64,000 nt of DNA from an uncultured Bacilli bacterium (GTDB lineage Bacteria > Bacillota_I > Bacilli_A > RF39 > UBA660), in assembly GCA_944358415.1 (NCBI GenBank), contig CALVRA010000005.1:6778-70777 (forward strand), in the 5' to 3' direction. The translations under genes were made by a program, and so were the position numbers. Shown in pieces: positions 5,247 through 30,965 of the stretch (positions are counted from its first letter, which is position 1; each line of letters starts with the position of its first letter). Below the pieces are notes generated by a model. That model searched no databases, was not told the origin of the DNA, and saw nothing but the letters and a program-made list of their open reading frames with translations.

Positions 5247-5323
<77 letters not shown>

Positions 5324-29527: not shown

Positions 29528-30232
29528 CGTTTTTTTTCGTTTTGAAAAAGGAAATCATTAGAAAATATTGTATGTTATATATAGAGAGTAATTTTAATAA
29601 TTATTGTGATTATTTGTGATTTTAATTTGAAATTGCAAACGTAGGTAATATGACTAGAAGTCTACTAAAAAATAGAGAGGCTTTGATATAATGAATGAAA
29701 TTATTAATAAAGATAAAGTAAATATAGAAAATTTAATTTATGAAATAAGGGGTAAACAAGTGATGATTGACAGTGAAATATCTGCAACCAAATGTCACGG
29801 AATAATTTACTAGACTTAGTTACTTTTGAATACTTAAGCAAAAATATAATATTATCAATATTAAATTGATGTGTGCGTTCTAATATTATATGTAAAATAA
29901 GTTTTTAAATTATTAGGTAAGGTAATAAAAATAATAGATTAGTAGCTTGAGATATGTTTAATTACATATCTTTTTTGCCTGTTTTAAATAAGATATTAAT
30001 GGCGAGTAAAGATATGTTGGAATTTTAACTGATATAGAAATAAATTTTCTTAATGGTAAAATAGTAAAATTTAAGCGATAAGCAATTTTAAGGTAATAAG
30101 ATTTATTCATTGCAAAACAAGAAATTGCTTCTTATGCAAAAGGAAATTTATCTCCTTTTAGTTATAAATTTTTGAAAGAGTTTTATATTTAGTATGTAAA
30201 GTTTGAATGTCTAAAAATTTGTGCACAATTAG

Positions 30233-30261
30233 TTGACATGATCTTAAAAAAATGATATATT
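30233..30261 (+). promoter_or_regulatory. Near-consensus sigma-A promoter inside the inserted element
   Basis: TTGACA, 17-nt spacer, TATATT. Preceded by the 10-bp palindrome TTGTGCACAA (30219-30228). Confidence 0.6.
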
Positions 30262-30267
30262 ACTAGT

Positions 30268-30335
30268 GATTGGTACTTAGAAAACTTTCGAAGCTCTAAG
30301 TCGTCAGACCTCTATACAGCGTATAGGGGTTTTTG
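30268..30335 (+). ncRNA. Candidate small RNA (about 70 nt), unknown class
   Basis: Hairpin CTTAGA...TCTAAG, then terminator CCTCTATAC-agc-GTATAGGGG plus T5 (30309-30334). No RBS and no ORF longer than 9 codons. Confidence 0.4.
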
Positions 30336-30827
30336 AGTGTTTGTTTTTTAATATAAATATATTTGTAAACTAGGAAATAATTTAATAGAATTTTAAGGTG
30401 GCATTTGGTAACAGCAAGTGATTTGGCCAAATTATATCATGTTGAAACAAAAAGAATTAATGGAGCTGTAAAAATGATCCAGAAAAATTTCCGGAAAGAT
30501 TTAGTTTTATTCTAATGGAAATGGAGATGAATAGTTTGAGGTCAAATTTTTCGACCTCAAACATAAATACTCGTGGTGGGCGTAGATATTCTATTAGAGT
30601 ATTTACAGAGCAAGGCGTGGCAATGCTTGCAACAATATTAAAGTCTAAAATAGCTATTGGTGTGAGTATTGTTATTATGGATGCATTTGTAGATATGAAA
30701 AAATATATTTCATCTAATTTGATTAGATAGTATTATGGATTAGAAAATTATGATAAAATTTTGAAAAATTAGATAAAAAGAAGGAATTTTGATAAAAAAA
30801 TCGTATGTTTATATATGAGGTGGTAAA

Positions 30828-30965
30828 ATGCGATTAATTAAACAAAATTCTTTTATTATGATTTTGTTAGCTAATTTTGGAATTAGTTATAAAATTATAA
30901 AGGGTAAGAAAAAAATCACAGGTTTATATAAAAGAATTAAATTAGGTAAGATATTTGACTTATAA
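30828..30965 (+). CDS. Possible small cationic/hydrophobic peptide (45 aa)
   Basis: Below the ORF-track cutoff. AGGTGG lies 4 nt before the ATG. Product MRLIKQNSFIMILLANFGISYKIIKGKKKITGLYKRIKLGKIFDL. Confidence 0.25.
   Translation: MRLIKQNSFIMILLANFGISYKIIKGKKKITGLYKRIKLGKIFDL

Follow-up and report, generated by a model that had tools for sequence, protein, structure and literature searches.

The stretch of DNA analyzed here (the window; 64,000 nucleotides) belongs to a metagenome-assembled genome (MAG) of an uncultured gut Bacilli lineage, 1.2 Mb in 40 contigs and 76% complete, and carries on its forward strand, to which the window coordinates below refer, an ORF6N gene that is split by a 645-bp insert (29777-30421). 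Relatives are labelled by genome (G), contig (C) and fetched locus (L), G000 being the window's own genome. The upstream open reading frame (ORF; 29691-29813) encodes MNEIINKDKVNIENLIYEIRGKQVMIDS and then runs into foreign sequence, EISATKCHGIIY, and a stop codon. Its ORF6N portion, the N-part, was delimited by translation and by the Pfam match of the read-through product; it comprises 28 codons and the first two bases (GA) of codon 29 (29691-29776), and forms the flank on the side of the left attachment site (attL). The ORF6N frame resumes at 30422 as (D)LAKLYHVETKRINGAVK and continues in a C-part (30422-30730). When 29776 is joined to 30422 the product reads ...VMIDSDLAKLY..., where the intact relative on G025:C7 has ...VMVDRDLARLY. 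A previous sequence-only reading of the window held that an insertion splits the gene and that removal of 29777-30421 restores the frame, and the read-through product indeed matches the Pfam ORF6N family (PF10543) at E 5.5e-30. For the intact syntenic homologue the values are E 1e-33 with the same family and E 1.8e-96 with the PADLOC model PDC-S05, and the host gene is of the PADLOC candidate PDC-S05 type.

The host gene has suffered two further lesions. An A5 run at 30470-30474 is one base short, as had been noticed before, and breaks the reading frame: after AVK the sequence NDPEKFPERF goes on in another frame. In addition, similarity to the intact 290-aa protein ends at about residue 130-163, the C-terminal domain having been deleted; in intact ORF6N copies this domain bears a phospholipase D (PLD)-like FHDRYFILD...GASIN motif, which is missing here. 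The window copy, frameshifted and truncated at its 3' end, is a pseudogene.

The insert itself is 24% G+C and, in agreement with the earlier statement that it holds no intact ORF, its longest ORF is 50 aa. Further copies in the same genome, which the sequence-only reading had envisaged, were not found, the insert being single-copy in the 1.2-Mb, 76%-complete assembly; nor was another 645-bp form present among the 64-65 congeners searched. The 645-bp form is without sign of movement or multiplication of its own. The correct annotation of this stretch is a pseudogene, a cassette remnant and a gene for a non-coding RNA (ncRNA), rather than several small ORFs.

The full-length partner and the origin of the insert

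Copies in relatives, including a full-length partner, had been anticipated and do exist. In a congener, a genus-wide search recovered a 1,542-bp element (G073:C10) with the same ends as the window insert. Its junctions read ..GATAGTGA|AATATCTGCAACC.. on the left and ..GGTAACAGCAAGTGA|C.. on the right: after the last letters of the ORF6N N-part, ...GATAGTGA, comes AATATCTGCAACCAAATGTCACGG..., as in the window, and an 85-bp right arm ends ...GGTGGCATTTGGTAACAGCAAGTGA before the ORF6N C-part begins. Between the N-part and this right arm lie, in order, a left arm of ~390 bp, a promoter with a first copy of the ncRNA gene, an intact abiD gene of 289 aa, and a second ncRNA copy with its terminator. 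The window insert equals this element minus abiD, plus a ~60-bp segment (29950-30012, hairpin included) that the alignment shows to have been lost from the G073 copy. No ORF of the Abi_2 HEPN gene is left within 29777-30421, while the gene is intact in G073 and in G065, a genome syntenic with the window that has the same right half.

Aside from the ~60-bp indel, the left arms of the two elements are 98.7% identical, and from the ncRNA core to the right end 154 of 154 nucleotides agree. The flanks, in contrast, have diverged to 83.7% (ORF6N N-part), 67.6% (C-part) and 61% (upstream DNA), and the host loci differ (FtsX permease-deoD in the window, dnaJ-pflB in G073). Since identity within the element is 98.7-100% against 61-84% in the flanks and the loci are different, the flanks are much older than the element, which inserted into different ORF6N genes at exactly the same codon; judged from these alignments, it has moved recently and site-specifically. 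Empty sites, which had also been predicted, were observed in species other than the window's: an intact 290-aa ORF6N gene stands at the window's syntenic locus in G025:C7, and the first ORF6N gene of G065 (ORF6N#1) is uninterrupted at the insertion point. The insertion and its full-length partner are in this way established.

The structure of the deletion is equally well defined. The single ncRNA gene of the window is a chimera, consisting of copy-1 sequence (promoter, ACTAGT) up to GATTGGTACTTAG and of copy-2 variants and terminator after it, and the deletion crossover therefore lies within 30268-30280. Loss of the toxin gene by recombination between flanking RNA repeats, with retention of the presumed antitoxin, would constitute a non-lethal decay route for a toxin-antitoxin unit. 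The insert is in this genome a fossil, in which the host gene is dead, the toxin is gone and an orphan ncRNA gene is possibly still transcribed.

Other copies have decayed differently. In G008:C1 (L025 8242-10422) the abiD gene of the cassette has been hit by an IS21-type element with istA- and istB-like ORFs (401 and 253 aa), and the orthologous abiD of G025:C42 has instead acquired stops and frameshifts. Close to the split ORF6N gene of G073:C10, on its upstream side (L034 3672-5238), a TnpB/Cas12f-like gene (382 aa) stands with a C-terminal AbiEi fragment (123 aa), which gives the locus the look of a small island of defence genes and mobile elements. The tnpB gene prompted consideration of an IS200/IS605-type palindrome-associated transposable element (PATE), which was dropped given that the ends are inverted and same-strand subterminal hairpins are absent.

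The structured RNA and the putative AbiD toxin

A promoter and small-RNA unit had been suspected inside the insert. The promoter is present, and the RNA can now be given an identity, namely the structured ncRNA that belongs to the deleted AbiD gene. Specifically, the unit consists of a sigma-70-type promoter (TTGACA-17-TATATT with TG, 11/12 matches; 30233-30261) derived from the upstream ncRNA copy, a 37-nt core, GAUUGGUACUUAGAAAACUUUCGAAGCUCUAAGUCGU (30268-30304), that represents the orphan AbiD-associated RNA, and, from the downstream copy, an intrinsic terminator recognized by its fold, CCTCTATAC-AGC-GTATAGGGG followed by T5 (30309-30334). Within the insert, only this unit (30233-30334) had clear counterparts in the relatives first examined. 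G008 and G025 each carry it twice, flanking an Abi_2 gene, and AbiD homologues down to ~52% identity carry the 37-nt core on both sides in many genera.

The fold of the RNA was tested on an alignment of 78 distinct copies flanking AbiD genes, in which pairs were counted and compared with 500 shuffles. Pairing holds in 100% of cells for a 7-bp stem, ACUUAGR/YCUAAGU, which includes UA<->CG and AU<->GC double changes; eight pairs have both sides changed (58 cells), none of the 500 shuffles reaches the observed covariation, and pairing collapses when the partner is shifted by one or more columns. The fold is thus established by covariation. Scans against Rfam, at E up to 1 for the region and up to 10 for the ncRNA, returned nothing relevant, and neither the window (E up to 10) nor any of the genomes G000, G073, G065, G025 and G008 gave a match to the Rfam abiF motif (RF03085). 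The ncRNA is a motif distinct from Rfam abiF and not previously filed, which flanks a clade of AbiD/AbiF genes on both sides.

The 289-aa product of G073 matches Pfam Abi_2 (E 1.4e-45) and PADLOC AbiD (3e-53), contains an RNICAH (Rx4H) motif, and resembles PDB 8VZ6 (E 7.8e-14), which is the complex of PbAbiF with its ncRNA (PMC12737573). In Clostridioides difficile, the AbiF toxin is neutralised by RCd22, an upstream ncRNA that is promoter-driven, ends in a terminator and bears the Rfam abiF motif (PMC12373285). The full cassette resembles both PbAbiF-AbiFr (PDB 8VZ6) and C. difficile AbiFCd-RCd22 in that its Abi_2 HEPN protein has the RNICAH motif and is preceded by a promoter-driven, structured, terminator-ended ncRNA (PMC12373285, PMC12737573). 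It differs from them in that its RNA lacks a match to RF03085 and stands as one copy on each side of the gene, as opposed to two motifs upstream; the window, moreover, keeps the RNA only. By analogy with these systems, AbiD of the full cassette would be toxic and would be neutralised by the RNA (PMC12373285, PMC12737573), and the ncRNA described here would act as the antitoxin of AbiD.

Several observations extend the range of this gene pair. An Abi_2 paralogue, ~30-35% identical to the cassette AbiD, occurs in 380 of 401 family genomes and in the window's own genome (G000:C25:3911-4804), where no 37-nt RNA core lies beside it; such near-universal occurrence is unusual for an abortive-infection-type gene. 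At six loci in several genera (L039, L057, L076, L079, L126, L151), a Mob/Pre-type relaxase-like gene (MNLNYAIFRS..HNKREK..) directly follows the downstream ncRNA in place of the ORF6N C-part, which suggests small mobilisable plasmids or elements as further vehicles of the AbiD-ncRNA module. Solitary ncRNA copies without an adjoining abiD gene were encountered at L027 (~7090-6995, minus strand; G025:C7) and at L036 (~5284-5318; G071:C11), the former ~400 bp upstream of the intact ORF6N gene at the window's syntenic locus, and orphan ncRNAs may be common leftovers. In a rabbit-gut Bacilli MAG (CANRGQ01; L119 3924-4484), 3.9 copies of a 145-bp unit, each with its own promoter, ncRNA core and terminator, follow two tandem abiD genes. 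The AbiD/AbiF toxin family has been proposed to contain the ancestors of Cas13, and this repeat array is of interest given that proposed ancestry.

A cassette family at one codon of ORF6N genes

The ends of the insert are inverted. The left terminal repeat, AATATCTGCAACCAAATGTCAC (29777-29798), matches the reverse complement of the right one, GTGGCATTTGGTAACAGCAAGT (30398-30419), at 16 of 22 positions when anchored at the ends (binomial P ~8e-5), and related elements from other genera retain the core, ACCAAATG/CATTTGGT, at their own ends. The imperfect terminal inverted repeats of the sequence-only reading are thus well above chance level. Across nine related elements for which both junctions are present, the 22-bp imperfect repeats abut GA on both sides and agree at 12-17 of 22 positions. 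AGTGA does occur at both window junctions (29772-29776 and 30417-30421), as reported previously; its interpretation as a 5-bp target duplication, in contrast, does not hold for the family, because the flank repeat varies and only GA is constant. Specifically, AGTGA (5 bp) flanks three of the nine elements (window, G073 and L148, the first two being the near-identical pair), CTGA (4 bp) flanks two, and GA alone flanks four. GA is repeated at both junctions in 9/9 elements (window 29775-29776 and 30420-30421) and is the sole constant flank repeat, taken here as the crossover dinucleotide. On the right, ...ACAAnTGA is conserved element sequence. The family consensus of the right end is GTCATTTGGTAGCTACAAnT, and joining the two element ends gives an attP-like sequence, ...CATTTGGTAGCTACAAGA-GA-AATATCAGCAACCAAATG....

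The right end always supplies an in-frame TTG (H-L-V-A/T-x-x-D), which in the window (30405-30407) is preceded by AAGGTGG within the terminal repeat and is a candidate start at which translation of the ORF6N C-part could resume. What had been described as stop-riddled remnants is in fact the conserved non-coding left arm of the element (29777-29976), closed at its 3' end by the terminator-like hairpin and T-run that the sequence-only reading had located correctly (~29950-29976). This hairpin probably stops transcription coming in from the ORF6N promoter. The first 199 nt of the window left arm, hairpin terminator included, are homologous to the left arm of an element in G345 (73% over 203 nt, pairwise E 6e-32) and also to that of the AbiD element of G219, these latter two being 87% identical to each other.

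The same left end, placed after ORF6N codon 28, recurs in G073, G219, G448, G345 and others. Together with the copies described above, a family-wide search of 401 genomes for left-end and right-end words, with inspection of the matches, placed insertions at this codon at no fewer than 12 loci (>=12) in several genera and in different genomic neighbourhoods. AbiD cargo in other genera, with the left junction after ...RGKQVMLDS, is found in G219, G121 and four other MAGs. With the same ends and codon, the cargo is a RhuM-family gene at L142, a KilA-N gene at L147, L258 and L267, and a YhcG/DUF1016 PDDEXK nuclease gene at L148, L257 and L255, while G448 carries three different cassettes in three ORF6N genes. 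This set establishes that the cargo varies and that the site is specific, whichever ORF6N gene, locus or genus is concerned. A scan of metagenomes with the left-end 20-mer gave five matches, four of them due to chance and one a decayed plasmid-like copy; annotated records of phage and plasmid collections gave generic ORF6N matches only.

One relative carries an integration enzyme. Recombinase-domain genes were sought in five genomes, and in G345:C8, of a different genus, such a gene lies 8.5 kb downstream of an already known left end. It belongs to a 9.56-kb element (L167 1332-10890) that separates the two parts of an ORF6N gene and shares both ends with the cassettes: the N-part ends ...GCCTGTGA, AATATCAGCAACCAAATGACACGAC comes next, and the right end, GTGTCATTTGGTAGCTACAAGAGA, precedes the C-part. 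Its cargo comprises an ADP-ribosylglycohydrolase, a histidine phosphatase and four unknown proteins, and a 564-aa Resolvase+Recombinase+Zn_ribbon_recom protein adjoins the right end. An autonomous partner, as the sequence-only reading foresaw, thus exists in the form of this relative; it encodes a large serine recombinase, not the transposase of an insertion sequence (IS). Its existence is established, and large serine recombinases are the presumptive mobilising enzymes of the whole family, the recombinase-less cassettes probably being moved by an enzyme supplied from elsewhere. Studies of TndX, the recombinase of Tn5397, found that a central GA is always used and that the target is DNA coding for the Fic domain (PMC4430133). 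Serine-recombinase elements are known to integrate within genes and to be flanked by very short repeats, and decayed elements that keep attL and the right attachment site (attR) are known as cis-mobilizable elements, or CIMEs (PMC5704250).

Taken together, it is likely that the window insert is a decayed, recombinase-less and cargo-deleted (CIME-like) member of a serine-recombinase cassette family that homes to ORF6N/PDC-S05 genes. The fixed insertion point would be the GA of the Asp codon after ...RGKQVMLDS in these genes, and the immediate ancestor a 1.54-kb cassette composed of a left arm with terminator, promoter and ncRNA, abiD (encoding an Abi_2 HEPN toxin), a second ncRNA with terminator, and a right end with a restart codon. 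A large serine recombinase supplied in trans would have acted on the ~22-bp imperfect inverted ends of such a cassette and, crossing over at GA, integrated it into ORF6N. Recombination between the direct ncRNA repeats would then have removed the toxin gene, so that a single chimeric ncRNA gene remained, with the upstream promoter and the downstream terminator, encoding an orphan antitoxin-type RNA; further decay of the host gene, by frameshift and 3' deletion, would have followed.

Several observations weigh against this explanation. A single recombinase-bearing copy was found, and in a different genus; the closest homologues of its recombinase in the window's genus are 53-54% identical, none of them at ORF6N, and among IMG/VR homologues (<=52% identity; 80 loci) none is beside ORF6N or has these ends. 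The window genome (76% complete) has no Recombinase-domain match, and G073 holds only distant serine recombinases (26-32% identity). The 5-bp flank repeat of 3/9 elements could also be produced by a DDE-type mechanism. Finally, as the ncRNA has no match to RF03085, the antitoxin role attributed to it draws on position, conservation and analogy.

Competing explanations, related systems and minor features of the locus

The sequence-only reading had described a non-autonomous element resembling a miniature inverted-repeat transposable element (MITE). That the insert is a non-autonomous mobile insertion with inverted repeats is upheld, and like MITEs it is small and non-coding; classification as a MITE is not, the insert being single-copy, unamplified and without a DDE transposase partner. 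A classic MITE would be a deletion derivative of an IS whose DDE transposase duplicates 5 bp of target (AGTGA). Short length, lack of coding capacity, terminal inverted repeats matching at 16/22 positions and the 5-bp direct repeats around the window, G073 and L148 elements are all features that such an origin would produce. They are outweighed by flank repeats of 4 bp in two and of GA alone in four of the nine elements, by the fact that the right-hand AAnTGA is conserved element sequence, by the single copy in the genome and the absence of another 645-bp form from the 64-65 congeners, and by insertion always at one codon of one gene family. Moreover, no DDE transposase was met with these ends: the longer form in G073 encodes AbiD only, and the one autonomous relative carries a serine recombinase. 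A MITE origin is for these reasons quite improbable. Still less credible, to the point of being negligible, is a self-splicing intron (group I or II) or other intervening sequence acting at the RNA level that would leave ORF6N functional. Co-orientation with the host gene, a conserved site, exact restoration of the frame upon removal and end repeats that could pair in RNA would suit an intron; nevertheless, no Rfam intron or other match was obtained at E up to 10, GUGYG...AY is absent, and no boundary within the 5-bp repeat gives a terminal U of the upstream exon together with a terminal G of the intron. Further, the insert has 24% G+C and its own promoter and terminators, cargo differs between copies, and the host gene is dead.

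Somewhat more plausible than either, yet still unlikely, is that no dedicated recombinase is involved, and that cassettes have been swapped by homologous recombination between ORF6N alleles already interrupted by one ancient original event, the conserved N-part with the left end on one side and the right end on the other serving as homology arms. Recombinase-less cassettes, at >=10 loci, far exceed the single copy that bears a recombinase, the N-part of ORF6N and the ends of the element show conservation of 84% and above, and tandem ORF6N fragments and many deletions at these loci attest to frequent recombination. However, identity falls from 100% to ~68% exactly at the right-side GA, where the shared arm of ~22 bp is too short for efficient exchange; uninterrupted ORF6N genes occupy the same loci; and the ends are arranged as recombinase sites are, inverted around a dinucleotide, with one element encoding a recombinase right at its right end. 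A single ancient insertion had at first been suspected for G008 and G025:C42 as well, and was rejected on the contrast of 99-100% with 68% identity.

Returning to the cassette family served by a serine recombinase, a broader scenario can be drawn, which we advance tentatively and regard as possible but doubtful. In small-genome gut Bacilli, ORF6N/PDC-S05 genes would serve as a docking site for integron-like exchange of single defence genes (AbiD with its ncRNA, RhuM, KilA-N, YhcG nuclease), the carriers being minimal cassettes parasitic on a serine recombinase that acts in trans. The ribosome-binding site and TTG of the right end would keep the host gene expressible, the repeat-toxin-repeat arrangement would allow safe loss of the toxin, and the surviving RNA would protect against incoming AbiD cassettes.

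Comparison with characterized systems places the family among known kinds while setting it apart from each of them. With the clostridial elements Tn5397 (TndX) and Tn4451/Tn4453 (TnpX), which large serine recombinases mobilise, it shares the Resolvase+Recombinase+Zn-ribbon architecture of the G345 enzyme, and with the Tn5397/Tn4451 group it shares GA at the crossover or flanks and intragenic integration at sequence coding for a conserved domain, Fic for Tn5397 and ORF6N here (PMC4430133, PMC5704250). Members of that group, however, are conjugative or mobilisable transposons of 6-21 kb with their own recombinase, in contrast to the mostly 0.65-1.5-kb single-gene cassettes described here, which lack one and target ORF6N. 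Like CIMEs, the cassettes have lost the integration gene, keep both recombination ends and could depend on the recombinase of a related element (PMC5704250); CIMEs, in turn, are described for integrative and conjugative elements (ICEs) that use tyrosine recombinases, while here a serine recombinase is presumed and the cargo consists of single defence-type genes. Integron gene cassettes are likewise interchangeable single-gene units with one orientation and one docking site, but the present family has no attC/attI structure and no IntI tyrosine recombinase, its docking site lies inside a protein-coding gene, and its cassettes carry their own promoters.

The family would therefore extend two known kinds, serine-recombinase integrative elements with their CIMEs and AbiF-type toxin-RNA modules, and it joins subjects usually studied apart, namely recombinase targeting, mini-cassettes and the structured RNA of AbiD/AbiF toxins. 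After Tn5397 and Fic genes, it offers a further case of a probable serine recombinase aimed at DNA coding for a conserved domain. Cassettes of 1 kb with recombination ends and one defence-type gene could provide cheap swapping of immunity genes to reduced genomes of ~1 Mb. The window copy, for its part, illustrates how a toxin-antitoxin unit may die, recombination between RNA repeats dropping the toxin and leaving the antitoxin.

Some minor features of the ORF6N locus deserve mention. The ORF6N motif L[RK]SQ[FI][VA]TS is encoded by a DNA palindrome, at window 30534-30560 in the form TTGAGGTC..GACCTCAA; in relatives it reads TTGAAGTCGCAAATTGCGACTTCAA in one and GGAGGTCACAATTTGTGACCTCC in another (L026, G025:C42, ~7455-7431, minus strand; L027, ~6468-6444, minus strand). 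Between copies the palindrome is maintained by compensatory substitutions, which points to selection for a hairpin or a dyad binding site within the coding sequence. The spacer that precedes the intact ORF6N gene of G025:C7 contains three hairpins of a similar kind. A promoter-like stretch of ~60 bp (...AAAAGGAA..N..TCGTATGTTATATATAGG..) is directly repeated, before ORF6N and before the next small ORF (window 29530-29590 and 30765-30827; L027 ~6770-6700 and 5790-5725, minus strand), bracketing ORF6N in the way expected if the gene itself had come to this place by insertion or duplication. The small ORF that follows the ORF6N remnant (30828-30965; 45 aa, MRLIKQNSF...) is conserved at the syntenic place in G025:C7 (..MRLIKSNSFLKIFLPNLAISYKK..), and may be a real small gene as opposed to a chance ORF.

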